Shown here: positions 9,130 through 64,000 of the stretch, piece by piece | How the letters are laid out: the number at the start of each line of letters is the position of its first letter | Numbering within the stretch: the stretch's first letter is position 1 | Source: Candidatus Eiseniibacteriota bacterium | GTDB lineage: Bacteria > Eisenbacteria > RBG-16-71-46 > CAVPCR01 | DNA: 64,000 bases | Reading direction: 5' to 3' | Assembly (NCBI GenBank): GCA_963823555.1 | Contig: CAWGMA010000001.1 | Location: 1,216,050-1,280,049, forward strand | The notes under the pieces: generated by a model | Databases searched by the model: none | The model's input: only the letters and a program-made list of their open reading frames with translations | What the model was told of the DNA's origin: nothing | Position numbers and translations under genes: made by a program

Positions 9130-10193
9130 GAATCCAGGTGGCCACGGTCGATCTGGAGACGCAGCTTCCCTTCATCACGGCCCATGGCGGTTCGCGCCAG
9201 CATCAGAACGTGCTCGTCCAGATCGAGCATGAAGGTCTGATCGGGCTCGGAGAAGCCGCACCCACTCCCTACCATGGCGAGACGGTGGCCAGCGTCAAGG
9301 CGGCGCTCTCGACCATGATCCCCGCCGTCGAGGCGGTCGGCAGCCCCGTCCAGCTCGAGGCGATCCATGGCGCCATGGATCGCGTGCTGGCGGGCAACCG
9401 CGCGGCCAAGGCGGCGATCGATATCGCCTGTCATGACTGGATGGGGAAGCGGGTCGGGATGCCGCTCTACGCTCTGTTCGGACTCGATCCCACCTCGGCT
9501 CCGCCGAGTTCTTACACGGTGCCCATCGTACCCCTCGAGCATCTGCGCCAGGCGATGGCTGCGGGCGAGGGCTTCGGCGCCTTCAAGGTCAAGATGGGTG
9601 ATCCCGGGGATGGCGAGCGCTTGAGCCAGGTACGCGCCGCCACGCAGAAGCCGATTCGCGTCGATGCCAATGCGGCCTGGAACGCAACCGAAGCGATCGG
9701 CCGGTTGCCAGAGCTCACGGCCGCCCACGTCGAGCTCCTGGAGCAGCCGGTCGCCGGGGACGACCTTCTCGGGCTGGCCCGCGTGCGCGACGCATCGCGC
9801 ATTCCGGTTCTCGCCGACGAGCCGGCCCTGACCGCGCTCGACGTGCCGCGCCTGGTGGGGATGGCTGACGGCGTCAACGTCAAGCTGGCGAAGGCGGGAG
9901 GAATCCGTCCCGCTCTCGCCATGATCCAGGTGGCGCGCTCCCTGGGGCTCCGGATCATGCTCGGGTGCATGATCGAGTCCTCGATCGGGATCGCTGCTGC
10001 CGCCCACCTCTCGCCGCTGGTGGACTGGGTGGATCTGGACGGCCACTTGCTCCTTGCCCGCGATCCTGCGCGCGGGCTGTCGCTTGTCGGGGGCCGCGTC
10101 GAACCGCGGGCGGCGCCGGGGCTCGGCGTGGAGCTCACCGCACCGGTGTTCGATCGCGGGGAAGGCTCGGACCGGGAGCGCCCCTCCTCATGA
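9126..10193 (+). CDS. dipeptide epimerase (L-Ala-D/L-Glu epimerase, enolase superfamily)
   Basis: Enolase-superfamily metal ligands (KVKMG..., IRVDANAAW, LLEQPV, ADE). ATGA overlap with DUF1611. Confidence 0.8.
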   Translation: MRIQVATVDLETQLPFITAHGGSRQHQNVLVQIEHEGLIGLGEAAPTPYHGETVASVKAALSTMIPAVEAVGSPVQLEAIHGAMDRVLAGNRAAKAAIDIACHDWMGKRVGMPLYALFGLDPTSAPPSSYTVPIVPLEHLRQAMAAGEGFGAFKVKMGDPGDGERLSQVRAATQKPIRVDANAAWNATEAIGRLPELTAAHVELLEQPVAGDDLLGLARVRDASRIPVLADEPALTALDVPRLVGMADGVNVKLAKAGGIRPALAMIQVARSLGLRIMLGCMIESSIGIAAAAHLSPLVDWVDLDGHLLLARDPARGLSLVGGRVEPRAAPGLGVELTAPVFDRGEGSDRERPSS

Positions 10194-29826: not shown

Positions 29827-30610
29827 TCAGGGATTTCGTGCGGTCGGCCTCGCCTCGCTTCGGCGTCGCAGGACAGCCCGGTTCCCCCTGCCGGCTGGGG
29901 CGGGTATATGGGTTCCGCCTGGGATGTTTCCGCTGAAACAAGTGCGCGATCTCCAGACGGGCGCCTCGCGCTGCAGCGGTGCCGACAGCACTCGGTGTTT
30001 CGCCAGGAGGCAGGTGTGTCGCGCCCGGTTTGGACACAACCGGCGTCGCCCCTGGTTGCAGAAGAGCGGGGCCGAGGGGTCGAAACTCTCGTGGCGCGAC
30101 TGCTTGTAGAGCCAGAAGCGAGAGAGCTTCTCAACGAGCGCATCTGGTAGGAACATGTCACCAACACGCTCGCCCTTGGCGATCTCGGGACGAAGTCTGA
30201 CCCGCGTGCGCGGCGTGCCGGAAGATCCATCCTGCGCCCGCGGCGCTTGCCGTAACAGCGAAAGGGGCGTACCCTCGGTGGCAATTCAGTAGGCTCCTCG
30301 CATGCCGAGCGCCGCACCCCATCCAGGTCGCCGACCGAGGAGGCGGGATCTACTTGGTCCCAAGGAGGTGCCATGGACCGGCGGAGTGGCTGGCTTGGCT
30401 CGATCCCGTCACGCCTGTCCGTTGCCTCCACCTGTTTCGGCACCCGCCAGCACGATAAAGACCGCCCACAGACGCGAACATCCCGCTTTCGCTGCGGTCC
30501 CTGCGCCTCAACGGCGCGACTCATTCCAGGGGGGGACATCAAATGACGGGGAGACTTTGGTCTGGTTCCTCTAACCGGCCACGCCCAAATCCGAGGGGAG
30601 GACTTCAGTC

Positions 30611-31507
30611 ATGACACGCAGGGCAGTTGGCGCGCTATGCGTCGTGGTCCTGGCGGCCGCGCTTGCATCAGGCTTCGTTCTCTCCATGCCTGCCATCGCC
30701 CAGAATCTTGTCTACAACGGCGATTTTGAGTACGGCAACCAGGGTTTTGTGTCCGAATACTCCTATTCGCCCGGTAACATCTGGGCCGCGAGGACCTACG
30801 ACATCGTCACTGATCCTAGCCACTCGCATCCGTACGCCGTTTCCTATGGTGATCACACCACGGGTTCTGGCCTGATGATGGCCGTCAATGGCGCCACGGA
30901 CGGCGGGTCCGTAGTCTGGTCGCAGACAATCCCGGTGGCCCCCGGGTCTCGATATGTTTTCTCCATCTGGCTCTCCTCTTGGGTCGAGGACTCGCCAGCG
31001 CAACTCGACCTGCGCTTCAACGGCCAGCCTGCGGGGATGATCTCCGCTCCTATGACCACCGCGCTCTGGGAGCGATCGGAGAGAACTTGGGACTCGGGCG
31101 GCAACACCACGCTGGTCATCAGTATTGTCGATAGAACCACCGCCTTCGGAGGAAACGACTTCGCCCTGGATGATCTATCGATGACTCTCGCCGAACCGGC
31201 AGCCGCAACCGGAGAGCCTCAACCGTCGGTTCTTCCCTCCGTCCGTGCATTCCCGAATCCGACAAGTTCGCACACGAGCCTGGCCATCACGGGAGTCCCC
31301 GCTACCTCGTGCCGTGTCGACATCTACTCTGTAACCGGGATTCTGGTTCGAAGCCTAGCTTGCTCGGCTGGCGGAGCCGGAGAGGAGGTGGTCATGCTAC
31401 CGTGGGACGGACGAAATCGGGACGGTCAACCTGCGGCGCGTGGCGTCTACCTGGCTCGACTTCACGAGTATCCGACAGTTGAAGCCAAGATCGTCTTGGT
31501 TCATTAG
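30611..31507 (+). CDS. secreted CBM-like (galactose-binding-like jelly-roll) protein with T9SS C-terminal sorting domain
   Basis: Signal peptide. NGDFEYGNQGF...W...ALDDLSM resembles CBM4/9/DUF642 sugar-binding modules. C-terminal AFPNPTSSHTSLAI...VDIYSVTGILVRSL...WDGRNRDGQPAARGVYLARL...KIVLVH matches the Por/T9SS CTD (TIGR04183-like). Confidence 0.65.
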   Translation: MTRRAVGALCVVVLAAALASGFVLSMPAIAQNLVYNGDFEYGNQGFVSEYSYSPGNIWAARTYDIVTDPSHSHPYAVSYGDHTTGSGLMMAVNGATDGGSVVWSQTIPVAPGSRYVFSIWLSSWVEDSPAQLDLRFNGQPAGMISAPMTTALWERSERTWDSGGNTTLVISIVDRTTAFGGNDFALDDLSMTLAEPAAATGEPQPSVLPSVRAFPNPTSSHTSLAITGVPATSCRVDIYSVTGILVRSLACSAGGAGEEVVMLPWDGRNRDGQPAARGVYLARLHEYPTVEAKIVLVH

Positions 31508-31666
31508 GATGTGGTCAAGTAGACGCTCCGGATGGGGCGTTGAAGCCTGAGCCCGAGTGTCCGAAGATAAGCGACGGTCGCGATCCCAATGCGGTGCAAC
31601 CTTCGACGTGGGTGATCAGAGCATCGTGGGCCCGATGAGTAGGCAAGGGCTCCTGACCTCGAAGCA

Positions 31667-32701
31667 TCACCGCCGGCCGCTGGCGCGCCCCGCCCCCTCG
31701 ACCTTGATCCGGCCCCAGGTCGCCGGGGCGACAGGGGTCACGAGCGGGAGATCATCGGCAATGAAGATGTCCCAGTTGCCGTTGCGGTGCGAATGAAAGG
31801 CGATGCGCTGCCCGTCGGGTGACCAGCGCGGGCGCGTGTTGTAGAGCCCGTCGGTGGTGATCGGGACCGCGAAGGATCCATCCTCGGTCATGATCCAGAT
31901 GTCGAACGGCAGCTGGGTGAGTTGATCGAGGTTCAGCACGCCGTCGCCCGGTGCGCTCCGGCCGTCGCCCCACAACCGATCGCTCGCCCAGGCGATGAGG
32001 TTCTGCGGGAGTGACCAGTTGGGCTGGATGTCGTCGCCCGGCCAGTAGGTGACCTGAGTGCCCTGCTCGCCGGCCGGAAGGGGCGCGATCCAGATCTCCC
32101 GATTTCCGCTCCGGTTCGACTGAAAGACGAAGCGGGCCATCGTGGGAGCGAATCCGGGCTCTGCGTCGTGAGCCTGATGCAACGTGGCAAGCGTCACCAG
32201 GATGCCGCTCATGGCGTCGTAGACCGCGATGTCCCAGCCGGCGAAGACGGTGTGGCAGATGACCCAGCTCCCGGTGAACCCGGCGGTCGGTTCGAGATCG
32301 CGGCGATCGTTGTACGTGAGCCGGAGCGGCGCCCCGCCCGCTGCGGGCACGCGGTAGAGCTCCTCCTGGTACTCGCTCGCAAGGGAGCTGTCGTACACGA
32401 TCCACTGCCCGTCGGGTGTGAACGTGGGCCCGCCTTCGTAGACGTCGTTGAATGTGAGGCGGGTCGGATTCGAGCCGTCTGCGTTCATCACCCAGATCTC
32501 GTTCGACCCGGTGCGGTTCGAGACGAAGGCGATCCGCCCGCCGTCCGGCGACCAGGCGGGGCCGGAATCATCCGCGCTATCGAAGGTGATCTGGGTGAGC
32601 GTCACCGCGGCGACATTGCGCGGCACGAGGAAGAGGAGGAAGGCGAGAACGAGAAAGGCCGCAGGAGGGCCGGCGGCCGAGGGGAGACGCCAACGCGACA
32701 T
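31667..32701 (-). CDS. TolB-like periplasmic WD40/PD40 beta-propeller protein
   Basis: Signal/TM (MSRWRLPSAAGPPAAFLVLAFLLFLVP). Repeated PD40 units (PAWSPDGGRIAFVSNRTGSNEIWVMNADGSNPTRLT, PTFTPDGQWIVY, PRWSPDGQRIAFHSHRNGNWDIF). Confidence 0.7.
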   Translation of the reverse strand: MSRWRLPSAAGPPAAFLVLAFLLFLVPRNVAAVTLTQITFDSADDSGPAWSPDGGRIAFVSNRTGSNEIWVMNADGSNPTRLTFNDVYEGGPTFTPDGQWIVYDSSLASEYQEELYRVPAAGGAPLRLTYNDRRDLEPTAGFTGSWVICHTVFAGWDIAVYDAMSGILVTLATLHQAHDAEPGFAPTMARFVFQSNRSGNREIWIAPLPAGEQGTQVTYWPGDDIQPNWSLPQNLIAWASDRLWGDGRSAPGDGVLNLDQLTQLPFDIWIMTEDGSFAVPITTDGLYNTRPRWSPDGQRIAFHSHRNGNWDIFIADDLPLVTPVAPATWGRIKVEGAGRASGRR

Positions 32702-38368: not shown

Positions 38369-39955
38369 GTGGCTCAGACCGGCTCGTCAGCGGCGGTCGG
38401 GGGAGAGAAGAAGGGCGGGGTGAATACCGTGCCCATCGCCATCCTGGATTTCGGTTCGCAGTATGCGCAGCTCATTGCCCGGCGCGTGCGCGAGCGGCAC
38501 GTGTACTGCGAGATCCTGCGCCACGACACGCCGCTGGCCACCCTCAGGGAGAAGGGTGTGGAGGGCATCATTCTCTCCGGAGGTCCGGCGAGCGTGCTCT
38601 CGCCCCAGGCGCCCCGGCCGGATCCCGAGATCCTTGCCTCCGGGCTCCCCATTCTCGGTCTCTGTTACGGCATGGAGATCGTGACCCTCATGCTCGGCGG
38701 CCGCATCGAGCGGTCGACGATGCGCGAGTACGGGCTCTCCCGTCTCGAGGTCGAGAGCGAGGGCGAGGTCCTGGCCGGGCTCAAGGCGTTTCCGGCCTGG
38801 ATGAGCCACGGCGATTCGGTGGTCGAGCTGCCCCCGGATCTGGTTCCACTCGGTCGCACCGGCGACTGCCGTTTCGCGGCATCCCGCCACCGGACCCGGC
38901 CCATCTTCCTCCTCCAGTTCCACCCTGAGGTGGCCCATACCGAGGACCAGGGGAAGATCCTCGACAACTTCCTGTTCCGGATCTGCCGGCTCGAACCCGG
39001 CTGGACCATGGAGAATTTCGCGGCCGCGGCGGTTCAAAGCATCAAGGCGCAGGCGCCGGAGGGGACGGCCATCTGCGCCCTGTCGGGAGGCGTCGACTCC
39101 TCGGTGGCGGCCGTCCTTGCGGCGGAGGCCCTGGGGGCGCGGCTCGTGTGCATCTTCGTCGACCACGGGCTCCTGCGGGCCGGCGAGGCGGAGATGGTGA
39201 CGCACGAGCTCGAGGAACGCTTCCATCTCAACGTGCACCACGTGGACGCCTCGAACCTCTTCCTGTCCCGGCTGGCCGGGATCGAGGATCCGGAGGAGAA
39301 ACGCAAGCGCATCGGCGCCGCCTTCATCCAGGTCTTCGAGGACGAGGCGCGCCATCTCGACGATGCGCGCTATCTCGTGCAGGGGACCTTGTATCCAGAC
39401 GTGATCGAATCGGCGGCGGCCGGCGGGCCGGCGGCCACCATCAAGAGTCATCACAACGTGGGCGGGCTGCCGGAGAAGATGGGTCTCAAGCTGATCGAAC
39501 CCTTGCGCGAGCTCTTCAAGGACGAGGTGCGGGCGGTGGGGCGGGTGCTCGCGATCCCCGAGTCGGTGATCGGGCGACATCCGTTCCCCGGACCGGGGCT
39601 CGCCGTGCGTGTGATCGGTCCCGTCGATCGCGAGAGCCTCGAGGTGGCGCGCCGCGCCGATGCCATCTTCATCGAGGAGCTGCGCACGAGCGGGCTCTAC
39701 GATGCAGTCTGGCAGGCCTTTGCCGTACTCCTGCCGGTGAAGACGGTCGGCGTGATGGGAGACGAACGCACCTACGAAGAGGTGATCGCGCTGCGCGCCG
39801 TGAACTCCACCGACGGCATGACGGCGGACTGGGCGCGGCTGCCGGTGGATTTCCTCGGCCGCGTCGCCAATCGCATCGTGAACGAAGTCAGGGGCGTGAA
39901 CCGCGTCGTCTATGACCTCTCCTCCAAGCCCCCTGCCACCATCGAGTGGGAGTGA
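38369..39955 (+). CDS. guaA: GMP synthase (glutamine-hydrolysing)
   Basis: GTG start after GGGAGGAGG. GATase1 (LGLCYGME, HPE). ATP-PPase SGGVDSS P-loop. C-terminal dimerisation domain ending ...PPATIEWE. Confidence 0.9.
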   Translation: MAQTGSSAAVGGEKKGGVNTVPIAILDFGSQYAQLIARRVRERHVYCEILRHDTPLATLREKGVEGIILSGGPASVLSPQAPRPDPEILASGLPILGLCYGMEIVTLMLGGRIERSTMREYGLSRLEVESEGEVLAGLKAFPAWMSHGDSVVELPPDLVPLGRTGDCRFAASRHRTRPIFLLQFHPEVAHTEDQGKILDNFLFRICRLEPGWTMENFAAAAVQSIKAQAPEGTAICALSGGVDSSVAAVLAAEALGARLVCIFVDHGLLRAGEAEMVTHELEERFHLNVHHVDASNLFLSRLAGIEDPEEKRKRIGAAFIQVFEDEARHLDDARYLVQGTLYPDVIESAAAGGPAATIKSHHNVGGLPEKMGLKLIEPLRELFKDEVRAVGRVLAIPESVIGRHPFPGPGLAVRVIGPVDRESLEVARRADAIFIEELRTSGLYDAVWQAFAVLLPVKTVGVMGDERTYEEVIALRAVNSTDGMTADWARLPVDFLGRVANRIVNEVRGVNRVVYDLSSKPPATIEWE

Positions 39956-39960
39956 CCCGG

Positions 39961-42930
39961 ATGCCCGATCGACTCGGGGCGGCTGAAGCCGCCGGTCTCG
40001 TCCTCGCGGCGGTGCTCTGCTGCGGCGTCCCGCAGAGCGGAGCCATGCCGCTGCATCCAAGCGTCGCCGAGAACCTGGCCAAGAGGGGAGAGCTCGAGTC
40101 GTTCGCTCGGGAGCAGGCGGACCTCCAGGCCAAGGGCCTCGATCGTCCGGCGCGGGCCAAGCTCGGGAGTCATCGCGCCTCGGGGATGCACGTCGCGGTC
40201 CTCATCGTCGACTTCAGCGACAACCCGTGGCAGATCGAGCCCGCCTACACGCCGGACCATTATGACGATCTCCTCTTCTCGCGTGGCACCCATTCCACCG
40301 GGAGCCTGCGCGACTACTATCTCGAGAACTCCTACGAGGTCTTCGATCTGACCGGGCAGGTCTCGGGCTGGCATCGCATGCCGCAGACCTACGCTTACTA
40401 CGTCGATGGCAAGCGCGGCACACGGGGCAACTATCCGCGCAACGCCCAGAAGCTGGTCGAGGATGCCGTGCGCCTGGCCGACGCTCAGGATCCGACGCTC
40501 GATTGGCGCCAGTTCGACAACGACGGTCCCGACGGCATTCCCAGCTCCGGGGATGATGACGGCACGGTGGACGGACTCATCGTCATCCATGCCGGTCCGG
40601 GTTACGAGGAAACAGGCAACCCCAACGACATCCACTCGCACTACTGGAACGTGGTCGACGAGGACCTCGAAGTCGACGGCGTGCGCATCTTCAACTACAT
40701 GGTCGACCCGCAGAACGGACGCACCGGGGTCTTCGCGCACGAGTTCGGCCACAACATCGGTCTCGTCGACCTCTACGAGACCGATGGCGGGACCTCGAGC
40801 GTCGTGGGCGTGTGGTCGGTGATGTCGCTCGGGGCCTGGCTCTCGGCCACGGGTGGGGCGTTCGGGCCGGGCTCGGGCACGCGGCCGTCGCATCTCGATG
40901 CCTGGTCGAAGGTCGCCGCGGGTTTCCTCGAACCGGTCGACGTGTCGGCGAACGCCGTCCAGCGAGTCCTTGCCCCGTCGGAGACCAGCTCGGAGATCCT
41001 CCGCCTGTGGACCAATGGATCGGAATCGAACGAGTACTTCCTGGTCGAGAACCGGGCGCCCATCGGTTTCGACCGCGCTTTACCGTTCGCCTCGACCACG
41101 ATCGGTGGCTTCCTCGTCTGGCACGTCGATGAGGACGTGGCGACCAACGATGATGCGGCGCATCCTCGGGTTGCCCTCGAGCAGGCCGATGGCCGTTTCG
41201 ACATCGAGTCGAACCGCAACTACGGAGACGCCGGCGATCCGTTCAGCCTGGGCGATGCGTTCACCATGGCCTCGCTACCCTCGAGCCGGAGCTATGGCCT
41301 CGAGGACACCCAGGTGCGCGTGGAGAACATGCGGCTCGTGAGCGGCGCCACCTTCGCGGCCGATATCACCGTGGAGACTGCGCCCGCCGTGCGCAAGGTG
41401 CGCCTCATCGTCCGGGATGAGAGCGGCAATGGAGACGGCGGCCTGGACGCGACCGAGCAAGGCCAGATCGAGGTCGAGATCCAGAACATCGGGCTCGATG
41501 CCCGCAGCCTCGAGGTCCAGCTCGTGAGCCTCGACCCCCTCGTGACCATCGCCGGCGGTCCCCTCGCGGCCGGGGACGTGGCCGCCGATGCCGCCCTCAC
41601 GGTGCCCGGAGCCTTCTCCTTTCTCGTGTCGGAGCTGCCGGAAGATCCCTATCCCGTCATGCTGCGTCTCGACTACTCGGCGGCCGGCTACACGGCGAGC
41701 GAGGATGTGGTCGTGATGGCCGGAGACGTGATCGGCTTCGCCGCGAGCTTCGAGAGCGGGGAGGCGGGCTTCGTCCACTCCGGCGGCCGGCCGGGTTATC
41801 GCGATACGTGGCACGTCGCCCCGGGCGCCGGTCGCAACGGCCGGAGCGCCTACCGCTGTGCGCCGCCGGATTCGATCGCCTACGCCAATCTCACCGACGC
41901 CCGGCTCGACTCACCGTATTTCTCGCTCGATGGGACCTGCCGCCTCTTCCTGTGGCATACGATCGACGCCGAGGTGGATGTGGCCACGCGGGCCTGGGAC
42001 GGTGGGCTCGTGGAGCTGTCCGTGGACGGCGGGCCATTCACGGCGATCACGCCGGTGGGTGGCTATCCCTACCGCATCATCCGGAACTCGCAGAGCCCGA
42101 TCGCGGACCGGGAGGTCTTCTCGGGGACGACCAGCGGTTTCGAGCAGGTCGAGTTCGACCTCGCCGGTCTCACGGGCGCCGCTCGCCTGCGTTTCCACTT
42201 CGGTTCCGACGGCTCGATCACGCAGCGAGGCTGGGTGGTGGACGAGGTCACGGTGGTCTCGCCGGCCGAGCCCTACGCGGTGACCTTCCTCACGCCGAGC
42301 GTGGATGCCGGGGGGCAGGTCCTGGTCGATTTCGAGGTGCAGGAGTTCTTCCCCGAGCTGCCCTACGCGGGACGGGGCTTCAGGGTCCACCGCCGCGCGG
42401 AGAGCCCGACCTTCCCCCTCAAGATGGCGGGGGCCACGGGAGTCCCCGATGGCTACGAGCTTCTGACGCCGGCCCCGTTGCCGCCGGACGCGAGCTACCT
42501 GGACACCGACGTCCGCCCGGCGGAGATCTTCGCGTACCTCCTCGAGGATCTGCGCGAGGAGGGGGAGGCGTCCCGATTCTACGGCCCGCGCACGGTCTAC
42601 GTGCCCGGAGGACCGGCGTCAGCCCGGATCGTGCGGGCGGTGCCCAGCGTGTTCGAGCCGGCCCAGTCGCCGACGACTCGTATCGAGTTCCTCGTGCCTC
42701 CGGGCTCGGGCCGGAACGTTGCCGCCGCCGTGCCGGTCAAGCTCTCCGTGTACGATCTGTCGGGCCGGCAGGTCGCGACCCTGGTCCATGAGGACCGGTT
42801 GCCGGGCAAGAACGTGGCCGAATGGAACGGCGTCGGCTCCCGCGGTTTCGCGGCCCCCTCCGGTGTCTACTTCCTCCGACTCGAGGCGGGGGAGGAGACG
42901 GCCGGTCGGCGGCTCGTGCTCCTGCGTTGA
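39961..42930 (+). CDS. M6-family (immune inhibitor A-like) secreted metalloprotease with T9SS C-terminal sorting domain
   Basis: Signal peptide. HEFGHNIGLVDLYE zincin motif within an InhA-like catalytic domain. Long beta-rich middle region. C-terminal VKLSVYDLSGRQVATLV...GVYFLRLEAGEETAGRRLVLLR is a Por/T9SS CTD. Confidence 0.75.
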   Translation: MPDRLGAAEAAGLVLAAVLCCGVPQSGAMPLHPSVAENLAKRGELESFAREQADLQAKGLDRPARAKLGSHRASGMHVAVLIVDFSDNPWQIEPAYTPDHYDDLLFSRGTHSTGSLRDYYLENSYEVFDLTGQVSGWHRMPQTYAYYVDGKRGTRGNYPRNAQKLVEDAVRLADAQDPTLDWRQFDNDGPDGIPSSGDDDGTVDGLIVIHAGPGYEETGNPNDIHSHYWNVVDEDLEVDGVRIFNYMVDPQNGRTGVFAHEFGHNIGLVDLYETDGGTSSVVGVWSVMSLGAWLSATGGAFGPGSGTRPSHLDAWSKVAAGFLEPVDVSANAVQRVLAPSETSSEILRLWTNGSESNEYFLVENRAPIGFDRALPFASTTIGGFLVWHVDEDVATNDDAAHPRVALEQADGRFDIESNRNYGDAGDPFSLGDAFTMASLPSSRSYGLEDTQVRVENMRLVSGATFAADITVETAPAVRKVRLIVRDESGNGDGGLDATEQGQIEVEIQNIGLDARSLEVQLVSLDPLVTIAGGPLAAGDVAADAALTVPGAFSFLVSELPEDPYPVMLRLDYSAAGYTASEDVVVMAGDVIGFAASFESGEAGFVHSGGRPGYRDTWHVAPGAGRNGRSAYRCAPPDSIAYANLTDARLDSPYFSLDGTCRLFLWHTIDAEVDVATRAWDGGLVELSVDGGPFTAITPVGGYPYRIIRNSQSPIADREVFSGTTSGFEQVEFDLAGLTGAARLRFHFGSDGSITQRGWVVDEVTVVSPAEPYAVTFLTPSVDAGGQVLVDFEVQEFFPELPYAGRGFRVHRRAESPTFPLKMAGATGVPDGYELLTPAPLPPDASYLDTDVRPAEIFAYLLEDLREEGEASRFYGPRTVYVPGGPASARIVRAVPSVFEPAQSPTTRIEFLVPPGSGRNVAAAVPVKLSVYDLSGRQVATLVHEDRLPGKNVAEWNGVGSRGFAAPSGVYFLRLEAGEETAGRRLVLLR

Positions 42931-46115: not shown

Positions 46116-49204
<3,089 letters not shown>

Positions 49205-49444
49205 GGCGGGGCCCGGAGGTCGGTCGTAACGACCCATGCCCCTGTGGCAGCGGCAAGAAGTACAAGAAGTGTCACCTCCTCCTGGAAGGTCAGAAAGCAA
49301 GATAATGCTTTGCTAATAAAGGCGTTATAGGCCGTTAGCCCTCCCGGGCGAAATTGCCCTGTAACCTTAGAGGGGGCTGACCGATCTGAGAGGATGATGG
49401 CGGGCCCGGGCCCGGTGGGCCTCCCGCCGGCGAGGAGGATCTCG

Positions 49445-53634: not shown

Positions 53635-53730
53635 GAACGCGTGTCGAGGCGGCGCTTCTTGACGCAGTTCGGGGCGGCAGCTATCTTTCGCGGGGTCCAT
53701 TCTCCCCGCCAACCCAACAAAGGAGCCTTG

Positions 53731-54972
53731 ATGTCGAGATTCCCGCGGTCGCGAGCGAGCGGCCTGCCGGTTCCGTGTCTGCTCTCGGTGCTCGTCCTCC
53801 TCTTGGCGCCCGCGGTCCGCGCCGGTGACGAGCCCCCCAGCTTCTCGGCCGAGAAGCTCGATGAACTGGTAGCGCCAGTCGCCCTCTATCCTGATCCGAT
53901 CCTCTCCCAGGTGATGACCGCGTCCACGTTTCCCGATCAGGTCCAGGCGGCCAACGAGTGGTCCACCCAGCACAAGGATCTGCAGGGCGACGCCCTCGCG
54001 CAGGCGATGGCCGATGCCAACCTGGACTGGGATCCGAGCGTCCAGGCGCTCCTTCCGTTCCCGTCCGTGCTCGAGAACATGGCCCGCGACCCGAGCTGGC
54101 TCCGGGATTTCGGGAACGCCGTCCTCGCCCAGCGCGGGGACACGATGGATGCGGTGCAGCGCATGCGCAAGAAGGCGCAGGACGCCGGCAACCTGCAGAG
54201 CTCCGAGTACATGACGGTCGAGAGCACGAGCCCCACCGTGATCGAGATCCAGCCGGCCGACCCGCAGGTCATCTACGTGCCGACCTACGATCCGGCGGTC
54301 GTTTACGCCCCGCCACCCCCGTCCTCGAGCGGCAATGTAGCCGCGGCGGCTCTCTTCGGCTTCGCCGCGGGAGTCATGGTGGCCGAGGTGTTCGATGATG
54401 ACTGGTATGGTGGCTGCGGCTTCTACTGGGGCTCGCACACGGTCGTCGTCCACAACTCGGCGTGGGGCTGTACCTGGGGGAACCGCTACACCTATCACCC
54501 GCCGTATCCTCCGCCGCGCAATATCCACGTTGATCGCAACGTGAACATCAACACCGGTGACATCAACATCGGGAACGACGTGAACATCAAGGGCGGCAAC
54601 AAGAACGTGAACATCAAGGGTGGTGATAAGACGACGAACATCGGCAGCGGCAACAACAAGAAAGCCGTCGCCGACAAGAAGGCCGGCGTGACCGACCAGA
54701 GGGTGGGCGCCGACAAGGGCAAGGCGGGAGCCGCGGCGGCAGCCAGGCCGCAGCCGAGCAAGCCGAGCGCAGCCACGGCGCAGCGCGGCTACAAGCAGAA
54801 CCCGCAGGCCAACTCCAAGAGCGCGATGAGCGGAATCCAGAACGGAAGGACCGAGTCGTCGGCCGCCAAGCGTGGCAAGGCCAGCACGGGTGGTAAGGTG
54901 CCCGCCGCTAGCAAGGCAAGCGCCGGCAAGGCGAAAGCCGGGAGCAGGGCCGGCGCGCGAGGAGGCAGGTAA
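53731..54972 (+). CDS. DUF3300 domain secreted protein with Asn/Ile-rich repeats and Lys/Ala-rich C-terminal tail
   Basis: Signal peptide. EKLDELVAPVALYPDPILSQVMTASTFPDQV is the DUF3300 signature. NVNINTGDINIGNDVNIKGGNKNVNIKGG repeats. Histone-H1-like K/A-rich tail. Confidence 0.7.
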   Translation: MSRFPRSRASGLPVPCLLSVLVLLLAPAVRAGDEPPSFSAEKLDELVAPVALYPDPILSQVMTASTFPDQVQAANEWSTQHKDLQGDALAQAMADANLDWDPSVQALLPFPSVLENMARDPSWLRDFGNAVLAQRGDTMDAVQRMRKKAQDAGNLQSSEYMTVESTSPTVIEIQPADPQVIYVPTYDPAVVYAPPPPSSSGNVAAAALFGFAAGVMVAEVFDDDWYGGCGFYWGSHTVVVHNSAWGCTWGNRYTYHPPYPPPRNIHVDRNVNINTGDINIGNDVNIKGGNKNVNIKGGDKTTNIGSGNNKKAVADKKAGVTDQRVGADKGKAGAAAAARPQPSKPSAATAQRGYKQNPQANSKSAMSGIQNGRTESSAAKRGKASTGGKVPAASKASAGKAKAGSRAGARGGR

Positions 54973-55913
54973 TGAGACGATGGATCGCATCGGGAAGATG
55001 GCCGCTGATCGCATGCCTCGTCATGGCCGTGCTCGTCCTCGGTTGCGGCGGGCAGAAGGCGGGCAAGGAGCGTACCTTCGCCACACCCGACGATGCCGTG
55101 CGGGCCCTGGTGGCGGCCGTGGAGTCCAAGTCCAGTGCGGAGATCAAGGCGATCGTCGGGCCGCACTTGGTCGATTTGATCATCGGTGACGAGGACGCGA
55201 ACGCCGATGTCCTGCGCTCCGAGTTCGTGCGTGTGGCGCGGCGCGGGATCAAGGTCCAGCCCGATCCCGACAACCCGGCGCAGCAGATCGCCTATCTTGG
55301 ACGGCGGGAGTGGCCGTTCCCGGCTCCTCTCGTGCGCGAGGGTAACGCCTGGCGTTTCGATGGCCAGGCTGGCGCCGACGAGGTCGTGTTCCGGCGCGTT
55401 GGCCGGAACGAGCTCGCGGTCATCGCCCTGTGCATGGGCTATGAGGACGCTCAGGCCGAGTACGCAGCGGCGGATCACGACGGGGACGGGATCCTCCAGT
55501 ACGCGATCCGCATCAACTCGACGCCGGGCCTGACCGATGGCCTCTACTGGAGCACGGCGAGCGGCCAGGATATGAGCCCGGTCGGGCCGTTCGTTGCCGC
55601 CGCTGCCGTCGGCGAAGAAGTGGCGGGGGGTGAGCCGGAGCCGGTGAGCGGCTATTGGGTGCGTCTCCTGCCGGCGACGCGTCCCGGCCCCGGGGTGCCG
55701 GGCCCGAAGGCCGAACCGGGGGCTCTCGTTCCGGCCGTGCTGTGGCCTGCCGAGTACGGCTTCACGGGGGTGAGCACCTTCGCCGTGGATGCGATGGGCA
55801 AGATCTACGAGAAGGACCTTGGCGAGAAGACCGCGGAGATCGTCGAAACGATGACGGGATTCACCCCGGACGCCACCTGGGAGCCGGTCGCCAGGGAGTG
55901 GGAAGAGGGTTGA
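54972..55913 (+). CDS. DUF2950 domain lipoprotein
   Basis: Lipobox-like LVLGCGG. DUF2950-like body. TAATG overlap with the DUF3300 gene (the two families are commonly adjacent). Confidence 0.65.
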   Translation: MRRWIASGRWPLIACLVMAVLVLGCGGQKAGKERTFATPDDAVRALVAAVESKSSAEIKAIVGPHLVDLIIGDEDANADVLRSEFVRVARRGIKVQPDPDNPAQQIAYLGRREWPFPAPLVREGNAWRFDGQAGADEVVFRRVGRNELAVIALCMGYEDAQAEYAAADHDGDGILQYAIRINSTPGLTDGLYWSTASGQDMSPVGPFVAAAAVGEEVAGGEPEPVSGYWVRLLPATRPGPGVPGPKAEPGALVPAVLWPAEYGFTGVSTFAVDAMGKIYEKDLGEKTAEIVETMTGFTPDATWEPVAREWEEG

Positions 55914-56611: not shown

Positions 56612-57552
56612 GGCGCCAGGGAAGTCCGCGCCACGGCCCCGAGGATGCGGCTCCAGCCGATCTCGCTGCCGCGATCGGGGCCTATCTCCAGCACCTCGCA
56701 CACGAGCGGCGGTTGTCGCCGCATTCGGTGGCCGCGTACCGGCGTGATCTCGCCGCCTTTGCGAATTCGGTCGCCGGCGGCGAGGATCGTTCACCCGAGC
56801 TCTCCCACTTCGATCGGGAAGCCGCGACCGCCTTCCTCCGCGCCACGACCGGGATGGGCCTCGCCGCTCGCACCGTGGCGCGCCGGCTGGCCGCGGTGCG
56901 CGGCCTGGCCCGTTTCCTCCGGCGCCATGGTTGGCTTCCGGACGATCCCACCACGGCCATCCGCTCACCGCGCTTGCCGAAGGCGTTGCCCAGAGTTCTG
57001 CCCGCCGGTGAGCTCGCTCGCGCGCTCGATGCCATCCCGCTCCAGGCGGGATCGGAGGTTCGGGACCGGGCCATCATCGAGCTCCTCTACTCGACCGGGA
57101 TCCGGCTCTCCGAGCTGGTGTCACTCGACGACGAGGACGTCGATCTCGATCGGGGTCTCGTTCGCGTCATGGGGAAGGGGGGCAAGGAGCGGCTCGCGGT
57201 CCTGGGTCGGACGGCGATCGCTGCGCTCAGGGCCTACCAGGACACGCGGCCGGCGGGGGAGGGCTCGTTCTTCCGTGGGCGGAGCGGTCGCCGGCTCGCG
57301 CGGCGCACGATCCAGCGCCTGGTCCGGGCGCGGCTCCTGGGCCTCGCTCATGGACTCGAGGTGAGCCCGCACGTTCTCCGGCACAGCTTCGCCACGCATC
57401 TTCTCGATCGCGGGGCGCCGATCCGCGAGGTGCAGGAGCTCCTCGGGCACGCCTCGATCTCGTCGACCCAGATCTACACTCACGTCACCGCGGCACGGTT
57501 GCGCGAGGTGTATGCGCTCGCCCACCCGCGGGCGCGCCGGCAACGGGGATAG
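56608..57552 (+). CDS. xerC: tyrosine recombinase XerC/XerD
   Basis: GTG start overlapping the pspC stop (GTGA). R..HxxR..Y catalytic residues ([13 protein letters not shown]; [12 protein letters not shown]; [16 protein letters not shown]). Confidence 0.85.
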
Positions 57553-57558
57553 CCCGCG

Positions 57559-58341
57559 ATGGCTAGTGAACAAGATCTCGAACGGCGTCTGGAGGAACTC
57601 CATCGGCTGGCGGTGCGCCACTGCCGCGCGGGGAGCCGGGACGAGGCGCTGGCCGCGGTCGAGGGATTGCTGGCCGCCGGCTTTCCCGACCTCAGAGGGC
57701 TCATGGAGGACAAGGACCTGGCGATCCTGCGCGAGGACGAGCGCTTCCGATCCATGATCCGCAAGGTCTCGATCGAGCGCTACATCGCCATGCTGGAGCG
57801 AGAGGAGCGGGCCGCGTTCCAGAAGCCGGATCAAGTCATGGCCGCGCTCGCATTCCGCGGCGGCGAGCGCGTGGCCGATATCGGGGCCGGGTCGAGCTAC
57901 TTCACGATTCCGATCGCCCGGGCGGTGGGTCCCGCGGGGAAGGTCTGGGCCCTCGATATCCGGCAGGAGCTGCTCGACTACGCGCGGCGGAAGATCGAAG
58001 CGGCGGGCGTGACCAACGTCGTCCTGGATCTGGTCCCTGCCGATGACCCGCAGCTCCGGGCGGAGAGCGTCGACACGATCCTGATGGTGGATACGATCCA
58101 CTACATCGCGGACCGCACGGCCTATGCTCGGAAGCTCCGCCGCGCGATCGCACCCGGAGGCCGGGTGGTGATCATCGACTACATTCCCAGACCGTGGTCC
58201 GAGCGGCCCTTCGGGCCGGCACCCGAACAGCAGATACCGCGCGCCACGATCGATCGGGAACTGGCGGCCGCCGGGCTCGAGCCGCGGCGCGTGCACGACT
58301 TCCTGCCCGAGCAGTATTTCGTCGAATACGGGGCTTCCTGA
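57559..58341 (+). CDS. class I SAM-dependent methyltransferase
   Basis: VADIGAGSSYFTIPIA...VWALDI SAM-binding motif. Confidence 0.75.
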   Translation: MASEQDLERRLEELHRLAVRHCRAGSRDEALAAVEGLLAAGFPDLRGLMEDKDLAILREDERFRSMIRKVSIERYIAMLEREERAAFQKPDQVMAALAFRGGERVADIGAGSSYFTIPIARAVGPAGKVWALDIRQELLDYARRKIEAAGVTNVVLDLVPADDPQLRAESVDTILMVDTIHYIADRTAYARKLRRAIAPGGRVVIIDYIPRPWSERPFGPAPEQQIPRATIDRELAAAGLEPRRVHDFLPEQYFVEYGAS

Positions 58342-58369
58342 CGACTCCGGGCCCGGCTCCGGCTCCCAC

Positions 58370-59965
58370 TCACTCGCCGCCGCCCGTGAAGCCCTTGATG
58401 ACTTCAGCCACCTGCCAGACGGTGTCGATCACCGTGCCGTCGACCCACTTGACGACGGCCACCGGCCGCTCGGTGACACGCGCCCGGCGCGGCTTGCCGC
58501 CGCAGAGCCGCTCGACCTCGGCCTGGATCTCCTCGATCGGCCGGATCGGCAGATCCGAGCCCTTGACGCGCGTCGAGCAGATCCCCGCGCCGCGGGTTGA
58601 TGGCGATGCCGCGCTCGGTGACCACGACGTCGATCAGCTCCCCGGGCCCGGTGAGGGTCGTCACCTCGTCGACGATCACCGGGATCCGGTCGCGGAACGA
58701 GGGCACGGCGAGGATCGTGCAGCCGGCGAAGAGGCAGTTCTGCCAGCCGCCGATGCCGTGCAGCAGGCGGCCGTCGGAGTGGGTGACGACGTTGGCGTTG
58801 AAGTCGACGTCGACCTCGGTGGCGCCGAGAACAGCGACATCGACCATGCGAGGCGAAGTTGCCCTTGCCGTGGTAGTTGTAGGAGGTGAAGGGGGAGGTG
58901 GCGACGTGGCGCGGGTTCTCGGCGATCGAGCGCACGGCGTCGAGGTCGAAGGTCTGACCGTCGAGGATGTAGTCGGTCAGGCCCTCGCGCAGCATCTCGA
59001 CCAGGTAGCGGGTCGAGCCGCCGCGCACGAAGCCGGCGCTTGCACCCCGCCCTCGCGCATCATCTCGGCCAGGAAGGCGACGAAGGCCAGCGCGATGCCG
59101 CCGGCGCCGGCCTGGAACGAGAAGCCGTCGCGCATGATCCCGGCGTCGCGGATGAAGCGTGCCACGAGCTCGGCGATCAGCAGGCGATCGGGGCTCGTGT
59201 GATCTGCGTCGTGCCGGAGACGATCTTCGCCGGGTCGCCGATCGAGTCCACCTCGACCACGCAGTCGACGTTGTTGCCCTGGATCTGCCACGGGATGCAG
59301 GGGAACGGGACCAGGTTGTCGGTGACGACGATGACGTGGTCGGCGTAGATCGAGTCGGCCAGCGCGAAGCCCAGCGAGCCGCAGGCGGACGGCCCGTGGG
59401 AACCGTTGGCGTTGCCGAACGGGTCGGCGGTGGGCGCGGCGATGACCGCGATGTCGATCTGGACCTCGCCGTCCTGGATCGCCTGCCAGCGGCCGCCGTG
59501 GGAGCGCAGCACGCCCAGCCCGCGCATCTTCGCCTGCGAGCAGTAGTCGCCGAGCGGGCCGTTCATGCTGCCCTCGATGTGGTGCACGACACCCCGCTCC
59601 ATCAGCTCGATCACCGGCTCGTGGCAGGGGAACGAGGCGCTGGGGAACCACATGAGGTCCTGCACGCCCATCTCGGCCGCGGTCTCGCAGCACCTCGAGC
59701 GCGACCCGGTCGCCGTTGCGCAGGTGGTGGTGGATCGAGATGACCATGCCGTCGCGCAGGCCGCACTTCTCGAGGGCGGTCGCGGAGGCTCGCGACCCGC
59801 TTGTCGCCGTTCGCCGGGTAGTCCGTGGCGCGAGCGATCGGCGGCGCGGCCTTGCTGGCCGGTAGCGGGGTGCTTGCCGACCCCGGCAAACGGAGCTTGC
59901 GGCTTCCCGTTGACGACCGTGGGAACCAGACGGCCGGCGCGTTCCGTGCGAGGTCCGTCTGGGCG
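58370..59965 (-). pseudogene. citF: citrate lyase alpha subunit (citrate CoA-transferase), disrupted by multiple frameshifts
   Basis: CitF blocks found in three frames: GLRDGMVISIHHHLRNGD; DLMWFPSASFPCHEPVIELMERGVVHHIEG; CGSLGFALADSIYADHVIVVTDNLVPFP...VDSIGDPAKI; SPDRLLIAELVARFIRDAGIMRDGFSFQAGAGG; GSTRYLVEMLREGLTDYILDGQTFDLDAVRSIAENPRHV; C-terminus VAVVKWVDGTVIDTVWQVAEVIKGFTGGGE*. Start boundary approximate. Confidence 0.6.
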
Positions 59966-60920
59966 GGAGTCGGAGCTGTCCTCGTCATCGCGCTTCCTCC
60001 GCAGCGGCCGCCGCCGGGATGAGGCCCATGGCCCGCGCCTCGGCCGCGAGCTTCCGGGCCCGCTGCGACCACCGGCGGATCGATCATCTTCGACCCGAGG
60101 CTCACCACGCCGAGACCGCGCCGCCTCGGCCTCCTCGAAGGCGGCGACGATGCGCCAGCGCCTTCTCGATCTCCGCCGCGCGGCGGGGCGAAGGCCTCGT
60201 GGATGACCGGGATCTGGCGCGGGTGGACGCAGCCCATGCCCTCGAAGCCAAGCGCGCGCGAGCGCTCGCCCAGGCGCCGCAGGCCCGTCGAGGTCGTCGA
60301 CGTCGCCGTAGACCGAGTCGATGGCCTGCACGCCGGCCGCCCGCGCCGCGTTGACCAGCCGCAGCCGCGCGCAGAGCGACTCTCGGCTCCCTCGCCGGTC
60401 TTCACGCACGCCGAGGTCGGCGGTGTAGTCCTCGAGGCCGATGGTCAGCGCGCACACGCGCGGGCGAGGCCGCGGCGATCTCGAAGGCGTTCTCGATGCC
60501 GAGGGCGGACTCGAGGATCGGCATGAGCCAGACCGGCCGGTCGCTGCCGTGCCGGGCCTGGATCGCGGCGATCGTCGCGATCGACCTCGCGGACCTGCTC
60601 GGCGCGTCTCGACCTTGGGGATCAGGATCAGGTCGGGGCTCTCGGGGACGATCTGCGTCCAGATCCTCGAGCCCGAGCGGCAGCTGGTTGATCCGCACCA
60701 TCCGCTCGGCGCCTCCGAAGTCGACGGCGCGCAGCGCGTTGCGCACCAGCGAGCCGGGCCGCGTCCTTCTCGTCGGGGTGCACCGAGTCCTCGAGGTCGA
60801 GGATGACGCCGTCGGCGCCGGTGGAGCCCGGCGTTGACCATGAACTTGGGCTCGTTGCCCGGGCAGGTAGAGCCGCGAGCGGCGGAGGCGATCCCGCGCC
60901 GACGCCGGTGGCGGCGCCAC
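59965..60920 (-). pseudogene. citE: citrate lyase beta subunit (citryl-CoA lyase), disrupted by multiple frameshifts
   Basis: CitE blocks split over at least 3 frames: RRSRLYLPGQ; ADGVILDLEDSVHPDEKDAARL; AERMVRINQL; PVWLMPILESALGIENAFEIAAAS; ALTIGLEDYTADLG; VQAIDSVYGDVDDLDGL...ALGFEGMGCVHPRQIPVIHEAF; GLGVVSLGSKMIDPPVV. End boundary approximate. Confidence 0.6.
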
Positions 60921-60999
60921 GAGGCGCTCGGGCCGGGCATCGCCGTCGTGCGACGCCGGCTCGCCGCGCCGCCGCCTCGACCCGCGCCGCGATCACGAA

Positions 61000-61286
61000 C
61001 GGCAGCGCGCCGGGTCTCGATCTCGACCCGCGCGTGTCCGCACGCCAAGGCGTCCCAGGACGTCCTGGCACCTGCGCGCGGATCGCCTCGCCGTAGTAGG
61101 GCTCGACCTGCGACTCGAGGTCGAGCTCGAGCCCGCCGCCGTCCGCGCGGCTCGACCGCGACCCAGAGGTCGGAGCGGACCTCGTCCCCCCGGCGGCCCG
61201 CGGTGCCGCGCCCCGCCCGGCCCGTTCTCGTTCATCGTATTCACGGCGTCGCTCCGCTCAGCCAGCTGGGCGAGGATCGCGTCGGT
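61000..61286 (-). pseudogene. citD: citrate lyase acyl carrier protein (gamma subunit), frameshifted after about 25 codons
   Basis: MTDAILAQLAERSDAVNTMNENG resembles the CitD N-terminus (MKIVKEALAGTAESSDLMVKIAP; prosthetic-group Ser in E-S/R-S-D). Its ATG overlaps the icd stop (ATGA). The frame is lost after NENGP. Confidence 0.4.
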
Positions 61287-62458
61287 CATCTGCATCGTGG
61301 TCGCCGCGCCCCGCTCGATGACATCCGGGCCGCCCGGCGAGCCGCATCATGTCGTAGGTGCGCACCTTGCCCTCGCCGACGACCGCGGCCGACCGCGTCG
61401 CGCACCCGCCGGGCCTTCGCCGTCCTCGCCGACGTGGTCGAGCAGCATCGCCGCGGAGAGGATCATGGCGATCGGGTTGACGATCGGCGGATCGAGCTTC
61501 GTCGTACTTCGGCGCCGAGCCGTGGGTCGGCTCGAAGACCGCCACCTCGTCGCCGATGTTGCCGGAGCAGGCGAAGCCGAGGCCGCCGACCAGTCCGGCG
61601 AAGGCGTCGGAGACGATGTCGCCGAACAGGTTGCCGGCCACGATCACGCCGTAGTCCTCGGGGTTCTTGGTCAGCCACATCATCTGCGCGTCGATGTTGG
61701 TGGACCAGAGCTGCGATCTCCGGGGAAGTCCTTCTGCGACCTCCTTCGCCACCTCCTCCATCATGCCCGAGGTCTCGCGCAGCACGTTCGGCTTCTCGCA
61801 GACCGTGACCGACTTGTAGCCGTGCTTGCTGGGCGTACTCGAACGCGGCGCGGACGATGCGCCGGCAGGCGCGCGCGGGTGAAGATCCGGGCGCTGATCG
61901 CCAGGTCCGCGCCCGGCGACCTGGGCGAAGGCCTTGAACTTCGGATGCGTCGCGAGGGCCTCGCGCACGGCCGGCGGCGGGTTGGTCCACTCGACGCCGG
62001 CGTACAGGCCCTCGGTGTTCTGGCGGAAGATCACGGCGTCGACCGGCGGCTCCTCGAAGCCGCCGTCGGCCGTGCGGCGGATGAAGTTCAGCGGGTTGCC
62101 CGGGAAGGAGCGGCAGGGCCGGATGCAGACGTCGAGGTTGAAGCGCTGGCGCATGCCGACGATGGGGCTGAAGTAGACGTAGACCCTTGTCCGCGGAGCT
62201 CGGGCTTGAGCTCGGCCGCCGCCTTGCTTCTTGGGCTTCGAGGTGATGGCACCGAACAGGCCGAGCTTGTGCCCGGCCAGCAGCTCGACCGTGCGCTCGG
62301 GCAGCGCGTTGCCCTCGTTGATCCAGAACTCCCAGCCGATGTCGGCGTGGACGTACTCGGCATCGAAGCCGACCGCGTCGAGCACGCGGATCGCCTCGGG
62401 CAGGACCACCTTGCCGATGCCGTCTCCGGGCATCGTCACGACGGTGTAGCTTGGCCAT
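61258..62458 (-). pseudogene. icd: isocitrate/isopropylmalate dehydrogenase-family enzyme (Icd-like), frameshifted
   Basis: Icd-like blocks: TMPGDGIGKVVLPEAIRVLDAV; FNLDVCIRPCR; VDAVIFRQNTEGLYAGVEW; VTVCEKPNVL; YGVIVAGNLFGDIVSDAFAGLVGGLGFACSGNIGDEVAVFEPTHGSAPKY. True N-terminus MPSYTVVTM is readable only if one G is removed from ATGGCC at 62458. A second frame carries RRIVRAAFEYAQQ. Confidence 0.6.
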
Positions 62459-62512
62459 GTCAGTTCTCCTGTGCTCTCGCGTCCGATTGCGATCGACGTC
62501 GTCAGGCCGAGC

Positions 62513-63030
62513 TCAGCCGTCGCTGACCAGGTTCTCCACGCCGCCGGCGACGACCAGCGCCTGCGGCACCGCGCCCAGCGGCGGGAAGCGGAAACGTCTC
62601 GCCGCCGAAGCGTGATCGTGCCCGCGCGCGAAGTCGACCTCGATCTCGTCGCCCGGAATGACGGTCGTGTCGCCTCGGCGCCGCTCTCCGCCGCGAACAG
62701 CTCGCGCAGGCGGTCGCACGAGCTCCGGGCACTCGATGCAGGGGAACCCGTTGTTGAACGCGTTGCGCAGGTAGGTCTGCGAGAAGCTGCCGGCGATCGA
62801 CCAGCGGGATCCCCTTGGCCTGCAGCGCGGTGACCGCCTGCTCGCGGCTCGAGCCGGTGCCGAAGTTGCAGCCGCCCGACGATCACGTCCCCGGCGCCGC
62901 GTCGCTGCGCGCGAACCCGGGGTCGTAGTTCTCCATGACCACCTCGGCCATCATCTCGCGGCGTCATGTCCTCGCGGTAGGTGTAGTCCTTGCCGTAGAT
63001 GCCGTCGGTGTTGAGGTTGTCCTGCGGCAG
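62513..63030 (-). pseudogene. leuD: 3-isopropylmalate/(homo)aconitate dehydratase small subunit (LeuD type 2), frameshifted
   Basis: [17 protein letters not shown]; [75 protein letters not shown]; C-terminus TTVIPGDEIEVDFARG...LVVAGGVENLVSDG. At least 3 frames, each shift explained by one extra G. Confidence 0.55.
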
Positions 63031-64000
63031 GAAGACGAGCCGGCCCGCTCAGCTGCTCGGGAAAGCCGGCGAGGATCTCGACGCGTCTCGTCGGACGCGG
63101 CCGGGCGTCGGCCGGATCGCTCGATGCGGCGCTCGAGCGGACGCGGTGCCGCGCCAGCGAGCTCGGCCGGGCCCGCGATGTAGCCGGCCACGGCCGACGC
63201 GGCGACGACCGCGGGGCTGGCCAGGTAGCACTGCGCGTCCCGCGATCCCATGCGACCCTTGAAGTTGCGGTTGGTCGCCGAGATGCCGACCTCGCCCGGC
63301 TCGAGCAGGCCCGGTCGCCGAGGCCGATGCAGGGCCCGCAGCCCGGCGGCAGCGGTCGTGGCGCCGGCGTCGAGCAGCGCCTGCCAGGCCCCGCGCCGCT
63401 CGGCCTCCTCCTGGACGTCGCGGCTCGCCGCGGCGACGTAGAGCTCGACCCCGTCGGCGACCTTCTTGCCCCGCAGCACGCGCGGCCGCCGCCGCCGAGG
63501 TCCTCGACCCGCGAGTTGACGCAGGAGACGAGGTAGGCCTTGTGGATCGCGATCTTCCGCGGCTCGATCTCGGCGAGCGGGGTGGCGTCACCTGCACCGT
63601 GTCGGGGCCCGAGACGTGCGGCGTGACCGCCGCGAGATCGAGCGCGATCCGCGCGGCGTAGCTCGGCATCGGCGTCCGGGCGCCGGCGGGTTCTCGGCCC
63701 AGGCCTCGAGGTCGCTCGTCCTGACGCGGTCGATCCCCGCTCGGCGAGGACGCTCCCGGCGCTCGTCGCAGGTACGTCGAGCGTCGACCTCGTCGACCGG
63801 GAACCAGCCGACCAGCGCGCCCCACTCGGTGGTCATGTTGGCGATGGTCAGGCGCTCGTCCAGGGAGAGCGTCGCGACCCCGGGCCCGGCGAACTCGACC
63901 GCGGCGTTCAGCACCTCGCCCTGGTTGTAGAGCCCGCACAGGGCGAGGATCACGTCCTTGCCGGTCGACCCCGGCCGGCAGCGCGCCCTCGAGCACGACC
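63030..64000 (-). pseudogene. leuC: 3-isopropylmalate/aconitate hydratase large subunit (LeuC-like), frameshifted, 5' partial beyond window
   Basis: [56 protein letters not shown]; C-terminal [19 protein letters not shown]...[39 protein letters not shown]. Segments lie in different frames. Confidence 0.55.

Follow-up and report, generated by a model that had tools for sequence, protein, structure and literature searches.

The window analyzed here is a stretch of 64,000 nucleotides (nt) from contig CAWGMA010000001.1 of a Candidatus Eiseniibacteriota bacterium. It ends in a minus-strand operon at positions 58370-64000, whose four genes belong to the aconitase, Iso_dh, CitD-CitE and CitF families and are all broken by one-base frameshifts. 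We conclude that these approximately 67 frameshifts are very probably an artefact of some kind and not the result of gene decay. As their source, a mixed-read consensus of a long-read (Nanopore-type) metagenome assembly seems to us the likely one, with a good deal of room for doubt. In this favoured reading, the genes are almost certainly intact in the organism, and the frameshifts are no feature of its genome.

The window has a G+C content of about 70%, which produces long open reading frames (ORFs) in all six frames and makes the raw ORF list little informative. The coding frame was decoded by a codon-usage Viterbi pass, with the codon usage trained on the long ORFs of the window. A sliding-window plot of G+C at third codon positions (GC3) gave strand calls that were too noisy, and the Viterbi decoding was used instead. 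Over the whole window, positions 1-58327 were decoded as long single-frame segments, and positions 58371-64000 as about 50 short minus-strand segments with a constantly changing frame. When the stop-to-stop translations of this block were compared with Pfam, pieces of aconitase-family (large and small domains), Iso_dh, CitE-like and CitF-like proteins were found spread over the three minus frames.

The frameshifts were placed with a frameshift-aware protein-to-DNA aligner, which was written for this analysis. The references were the intact proteins of a syntenic cluster in an Acidobacteria metagenome-assembled genome (MAG), GCA_017994815.1 (locus L002). Plain tblastn with intact proteins was useless for placing frameshifts, because its alignments continue through wrong frames in DNA of 70% G+C. 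On the minus strand of 58370-64000, 67 frameshift events were detected, of which 60 were one-base insertions and 7 were one-base deletions. A DNA alignment to L002 by MAFFT (81% identity) independently gave the same frameshift picture. No larger deletions were observed in the operon outside variable linkers. These results confirm that the frame disruption in the terminal block is real and far beyond chance. A preliminary description of the sequence, which had called the block riddled with one-nucleotide indels, was correct on this point.

The L002 cluster encodes a PrpD/MmgE-family protein of 458 amino acids (aa), a fusion of Aconitase and Aconitase_C (643 aa), an Iso_dh protein (394 aa), a fusion of an acyl carrier protein (ACP) and an HpcH_HpaI domain (CitD-CitE, 402 aa) and CitF (521 aa). 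The window counterparts are listed in Table 1 with their frameshifts. Pfam, the homologues and NCBIfam show that the gene identities given in the preliminary description (aconitase/LeuCD family, Iso_dh family, CitD, CitE and CitF) were essentially right. Its count of six genes has to be reduced to four ORFs: the LeuC-like and LeuD-like parts are one protein in relatives, as are CitD and CitE, and the alignment of the window continues across both fusions. After correction, the window proteins are 75-84% identical to those of L002, and the intact homologues from 80 other genomes are no closer to L002 than this. The stitched translation of the window CitF matched thousands of CitF proteins with 83-87% identity. 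An exact intact copy of it was not found in a collection of 5.8 billion proteins, in which the best match was 87% identical.

The inserted bases were C in 33 cases, G in 24 and A in 3. Twenty of the 60 insertions adjoin an identical base, and none is located in a homopolymer of four or more. Since no insertion lies in such a run, homopolymer error was rejected as an explanation. The preliminary description had ascribed several shifts to a single extra or missing G; the inserted bases, nearly all of them C or G and outside homopolymers, give another picture. Among the three repairs that it proposed, two match events at ~62798 and ~63043-63049. The third, ATGGCC to ATGCC at the icd start, is disfavoured, since homology prefers the removal of the C in AAGCTAC, which yields MAKYTVVTMPGDGIG (versus MARFTVVTMPGDGIG in L002).

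The first detectable event is at ~58568, 200 nt inside citF. Therefore, the left edge of the damaged patch can be placed only between 58341 and 58568, and the start right after the methyltransferase at 58341, as described earlier, is only one end of this range. On the other side, position 64000 is the edge of the window and not necessarily the end of the source contig, which is 2.3 Mb in length.

The terminal block, the only damaged place listed in the preliminary description, is not the only one in the window. Frameshift-aware alignment to four intact SecA proteins revealed a second patch in secA (46116-49290), where the Pfam SecA domains lie on separate ORFs. The secA frame switches occur 57-185 nt from any stop codon. 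The other same-strand frame switches in 1-58 kb are at most 38 nt from the stop of the upstream frame, with one exception at 9059 (69 nt). Apart from the operon and secA patches, the remaining ~55 kb of the window is clean. As the second patch lies mid-window, the notion of a low-quality region at a contig edge is inaccurate. The gene secA is essential, and the organism could not live with secA in such a state.

In the corrected reading, no in-frame stop was present in 1774 codons. The differences between the window and L002 at codon positions 1, 2 and 3 were 14.7%, 10.8% and 32.1%, respectively, and have the same shape as in pairs of intact copies. This codon-position pattern indicates normal purifying selection once the indels are corrected.

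These observations bear on the possibility that the indels are real mutations and the operon a true cluster of pseudogenes, inactivated recently. In its favour, all four genes are struck, and the methyltransferase beside them is intact. However, the essential secA is damaged likewise, so that the damage is not limited to dispensable genes. Bacterial pseudogenes are reportedly deletion-biased, a finding attributed to Mira, Ochman and Moran in 2001 and to Kuo and Ochman in 2009. The excess of insertions (60:7) and the lack of larger deletions are opposite to this bias. Furthermore, the 67 indels come without a single nonsense codon, and the differences by codon position show no relaxation. Two further results are against decay: the first frameshift is missing where the same sequence was assembled separately, and copies with multiple frameshifts are confined to Nanopore-only MAGs (both described below). 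We therefore regard a pseudogene cluster as very improbable.

The methyltransferase served as an anchor for the comparison with other assemblies. An identical protein (100%) is encoded on a separately assembled Logan contig of 4153 nt (ERR15459714). On this contig, the minus-strand frame of citF runs without interruption for 106 codons between its stop and the contig end. In the window, the insertion at ~58568 results in a stop in the citF frame at 58634-58636. Thus, the ~58568 break is absent from the Logan contig, a result that concerns this one event. Insertion bias, intact codons, the broken secA and the Logan contig favour low-quality sequence rather than a decaying operon, in agreement with the preliminary description.

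A short-read contig from another sample (JGI 3300046048, L084, 1-1827) matches window positions 56744-58568 with ~96% identity. It has no indels over 1.87 kb, and its end coincides with the first frameshift site of the window, so that it is silent on that site. The Logan contig ends ~120 nt beyond the end point of L084. Short-read assemblies that break just inside citF would fit strain variation beginning there. The idea that the operon had been joined to the contig as a chimera was considered and rejected, because the junction of the methyltransferase and citF is present in both of these assemblies. The gene order at 53641-55913, namely a DUF3300/DUF2950 pair, a small ORF, a PspC-domain protein and an XerC/D-type recombinase (all intact), is also the same on the Logan contig.

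The frameshifts could in principle be decoded by the cell through programmed ribosomal frameshifting, transcriptional slippage or RNA editing. Nothing speaks for this beyond the fact that each fragment is still recognizable. About 67 events would have to be recoded in 5.6 kb, in contexts without a common slippery motif. The orthologues in ~60 genomes are single ORFs that require no recoding, and secA is damaged in the same way. Biological decoding is accordingly an explanation to which we give almost no weight.

Frameshifts were also counted with the same aligner in 81 related loci, of which 32 have names in the Flye style ('contig_N'; 31 Microflora Danica MAGs and L001) and 49 do not. In the 'contig_N' loci, uncompensated frameshifts numbered 60 over 215 kb (53 were insertions and 7 deletions), as against 7 over 283 kb in the others. 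Three or more events were found in 6 of the 32 'contig_N' loci versus none of the 49 others (Fisher p = 0.003). The Microflora Danica MAGs were built from Nanopore reads alone, by metaFlye assembly and one Medaka polishing round (PMC12313526). The damaged operon copies in public MAGs are included in Table 1; their events are mostly insertions, and their citF has in most cases escaped damage.

Two kinds of error were weighed as the source of the artefact. In a mixed-read consensus, reads from more than one allele of the highly conserved operon would have been piled up together. The alleles could come from co-occurring strains or from reads of related species that map to the operon. At sites where the alleles differ, the consensus would retain the bases of both, and one base would thereby be added. 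Alternatively, the patch could be a low-coverage or unpolished segment, derived from one or a few raw long reads, in which random read errors were kept in the consensus. Several observations are in line with thin coverage. The patch limits are sharp, the density of ~1.2 events per 100 nt is within the error range of raw modern Nanopore reads, a separate second patch exists in secA, and some affected MAGs are damaged outside the operon as well. In addition, frameshift-truncated proteins are reported as more common in soil Nanopore assemblies than in HiFi ones (PMC13087279).

The positions of the events argue for mixed reads. When the window was compared with five other long-read loci, 17 events coincided within one residue against 7.2 expected, and none of 2000 permutations reached 17. 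Random errors would not recur at homologous residues across assemblies. At aconitase residue 498, the homologues have either ACG CCC GAG (Thr-Pro-Glu) or ACC CGC GAG (Thr-Arg-Glu), and the window has ACGCCGCGAG, which is a merge of the ACG-CC-CGAG and AC-CC-G-CGAG alleles. At Iso_dh residue 208, the homologues have CAGAAG or CGCAAG; the window sequence CAGCAAG corresponds to CAG-AAG and C-GCAAG merged.

This feature was scored by an allele-merge test, in which at least two different single-base deletions must each give a 9-mer that is present in a homologue at the site. The test was positive for 44% of the window insertions, as compared with 22% of 992 simulated random insertions that were placed in intact high-GC homologues and treated by the same pipeline (p = 4e-4). 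Random read errors should show no enrichment where two known alleles merge. CitF, the most conserved of the genes, had the lowest event density (0.58 per 100 nt versus 1.2-1.95 elsewhere, with CitDE the densest at 1.95). Errors that originate at polymorphic sites would show this pattern, whereas random errors would not be rarer in the best conserved gene. The 9:1 ratio of insertions, with none in long homopolymers, is likewise unexpected for random read errors. Because of the site recurrence, the allele-merge enrichment and the low density in CitF, we favour a heterogeneous pile-up; a thinly covered stretch is possible but rather doubtful. The corrected window proteins were also ranked by mean identity, to see if they are as central as a community consensus would be; they came 13th of 62, although the nearest neighbour is only 80% identical, a result that is no more than suggestive and was not used as evidence.

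Several points weigh against the mixed-read artefact as we describe it. Heterogeneity of the pile-up, and with it the mixed-read mechanism, is inferred from the sequence. The Nanopore-type technology of the 2.3-Mb contig is likewise deduced from its error signature. The allele-merge figure is an enrichment and not a rule. The Logan run may share its sample with the window; it would then be separate from the consensus step, yet drawn from the same DNA. The genes guaA, purH, topA and efp in the window are clean; thus, a patch is not to be predicted from conservation alone. In several of the damaged MAGs, citF, the most conserved gene, is the intact one. Moreover, L028 seems to switch frame outside the operon too, and the association with Nanopore-only assemblies may partly reflect poor assemblies.

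A more biological interpretation is that, beneath the artefact, two or more markedly diverged alleles of the operon and of secA coexist in the sampled population and, separately, that the cluster represents an uncharacterized pathway widespread in soil phyla. We consider this combination unlikely. Coexistence of alleles may stem from recombination or horizontal transfer. The pathway would be lyase-initiated and CoA-synthase-independent, and its substrate would be a tricarboxylate or a 2-oxoacid, for example homocitrate, citramalate or citrate.

If the artefact reading is accepted, the frameshifts are not a property of the organism and are therefore no biological finding in themselves. They have practical consequences nevertheless. 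Automatic annotation of the contig would yield a dozen bogus pseudogenes or fragments, secA among them. Several public Nanopore-only MAGs carry damaged copies of this operon, which leads to fragmented annotations from those records. Therefore, calls of pathway presence and counts of pseudogenes made on such genomes are biased at the most conserved loci. The insertion-type allele-merge signature is a recognizable fingerprint, which could serve to flag and repair such patches.

Table 1. Damaged genes of the window, the flanking methyltransferase gene and damaged copies of the operon in public MAGs. Identities are after frameshift correction.
Feature	Position	Strand	One-base events	Alignment to L002 (residues; identity)	Remarks
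citF-like gene (citrate lyase alpha / citrate CoA-transferase family, PF04223)	58370-59970	-	9 (7 insertions, 2 deletions)	3-520; 84%	Stop codon 58370-58372
Fused citD-citE-like gene (ACP PF06857 + HpcH_HpaI/C-C_Bond_Lyase)	59967-61213	-	23 (20 insertions, 3 deletions)	3-396; 77%	
Iso_dh-family beta-decarboxylating dehydrogenase gene	61258-62458	-	14 (14 insertions, 0 deletions)	1-394; 83%	PF00180 match
Fused aconitase-family gene (LeuC-like + LeuD-like), 3' three-quarters	62513-64000	-	21 (19 insertions, 2 deletions)	163-637; 75%	PF00330 and PF00694 on fragments; 5' end outside the window
secA	46116-49290	+	~10-12 (insertions and deletions)		Split over at least 5 frames; artefact of the same class
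S-adenosylmethionine (SAM)-dependent methyltransferase gene	57559-58341	+			Intact; flanks the patch
Operon copy, L001	5576-9993		19 uncompensated		Public Nanopore-only MAG
Operon copy, L047	~2950-9700		12 uncompensated		Public Nanopore-only MAG
Operon copy, L028	Parts of the operon		8 uncompensated		Public Nanopore-only MAG
Operon copy, L054	Parts of the operon		6 uncompensated		Public Nanopore-only MAG
Operon copy, L023	Parts of the operon		4 uncompensated		Public Nanopore-only MAG

The operon itself was traced in a scan of species-representative genomes (one per species). At least 580 confirmed CitF relatives were obtained, and the best 80 loci were compared. In most of these 80, the order prpD, fused aconitase-family gene, Iso_dh, CitDE and CitF is the same. 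The hosts are Acidobacteriota, Gemmatimonadota (including the complete genome CP070815.1), Rhodothermales, Latescibacteria and Bacteroidetes MAGs. Thus, the operon, which had been described as unusual, is not rare, and it is intact and syntenic in dozens of MAGs. In the complete Gemmatimonadota genome (L085, 11600-19549), the cluster is followed by genes for an ADP-forming acyl-CoA synthetase-like protein, a thiolase and a 2-oxoacid:ferredoxin oxidoreductase. In two Acidobacteriota relatives, an HD-domain gene precedes prpD (L002, 3605-4150; L086, 3246-3794).

For the family assignment, the intact L002 proteins were compared with NCBIfam. The fused hydro-lyase passes the cut-off of the homoaconitase model TIGR00139 (770.7 versus 529.9 bits). 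By its homology to this protein (75% identity after correction), the window hydro-lyase is assigned to the homoaconitase family. The best matches of the L002 Iso_dh protein are homoisocitrate dehydrogenases, below every equivalog cut-off. The scores of citE (275.4 versus 443.4), citF (476.9 versus 501.45) and citD (58.4 versus 63.5) are also all below the equivalog cut-offs. Since CitE and CitF do not reach these cut-offs, the term complete citDEF citrate lyase, used in the preliminary description, is too strong. No CitC, CitX or CitG Pfam domain was found among the called genes within 10 kb in L001, L002, L085 and L086, a search that took in no whole genomes and only part of the other 58 kb of the window. 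A literature search for the combination of prpD, homoaconitase-family, Iso_dh, CitDE and CitF genes found no characterization. Leaving the frameshifts aside, the five genes form a real cluster, found very widely among soil bacteria and uncharacterized in function, which constitutes a separate, if modest, lead. Intact copies (L002, L085 and L086) are a better basis than the window for work on the operon.

Other features of the window were noted. The neighbours of secA (a PQQ/beta-propeller protein gene, topA and a trmFO/gidA-like gene) are intact. The window secA has no relative above 79% identity, and its named matches, from Candidatus Eisenbacteria, are at 58-66%; by this gene, the organism falls near Candidatus Eisenbacteria. 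The identity of CitF to Acidobacteria and Gemmatimonadota proteins (83-87%) is sharply above this conservation of secA, and the operon as a whole has 80-87% protein identity to copies in other phyla. The contrast between CitF and secA would come either from unusual conservation of the operon or its mobility across phyla, or from a consensus pulled toward foreign reads. The region 29774-31700 has a G+C content of ~63% and a weak coding signal; its sole Pfam match is FlgD Ig-like, at the C-terminus of a 298-aa ORF (30611-31507). A FlgD Ig-like domain also ends the 994-aa M6 peptidase at 39946-42930. An Rfam scan of the window gave no match.

The damaged operon resembles known decaying operons, such as the Mycobacterium leprae pseudogenes, in that consecutive recognizable genes are broken by frameshifts. 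However, the deletion bias, nonsense codons and relaxed substitution of such operons are all absent here. It also resembles consensus indel errors of long-read (Nanopore) metagenome assemblies, as detected by IDEEL-type truncation tests: one-base indels split normal genes, and the damage is patchy and tied to the technology. At ~1200 events per 100 kb, however, the local rate is ~300 times that given for mock-community assemblies (~4 indels per 100 kb). Nanopore errors of the classic kind are deletions in homopolymers, whereas in the window C/G insertions predominate outside homopolymers and recur at allele-variable sites. These two properties of the insertions suggest a mixed pile-up rather than base-calling noise.

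The gene content can be compared with the citrate lyase CitDEF of enterobacteria and lactic acid bacteria, in which CitD is the ACP, CitE is the citryl-ACP lyase and CitF is the citrate:acetyl-ACP transferase. As in that system, PF06857, PF03328 and PF04223 are adjacent in the L002 homologues, to which the window fragments align, and the best NCBIfam matches of the L002 proteins are citD, citE and citF. The differences are that CitD and CitE are fused here, that the subunits score below the equivalog cut-offs, and that the genes are set among homoaconitase-family and Iso_dh-family genes. Because of this setting, the substrate may be other than citrate; it could be citrate, homocitrate or citramalate. 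A LeuCD-type hydro-lyase gene that adjoins an Iso_dh-family dehydrogenase gene is also found in the alpha-aminoadipate pathway (homoaconitase and homoisocitrate dehydrogenase) and in LeuCD with LeuB. In contrast to these 2-oxoacid chain-elongation modules, the cluster contains no homocitrate or isopropylmalate synthase gene, and a citrate-lyase-like complex and a PrpD-family dehydratase stand in the place of the synthase.

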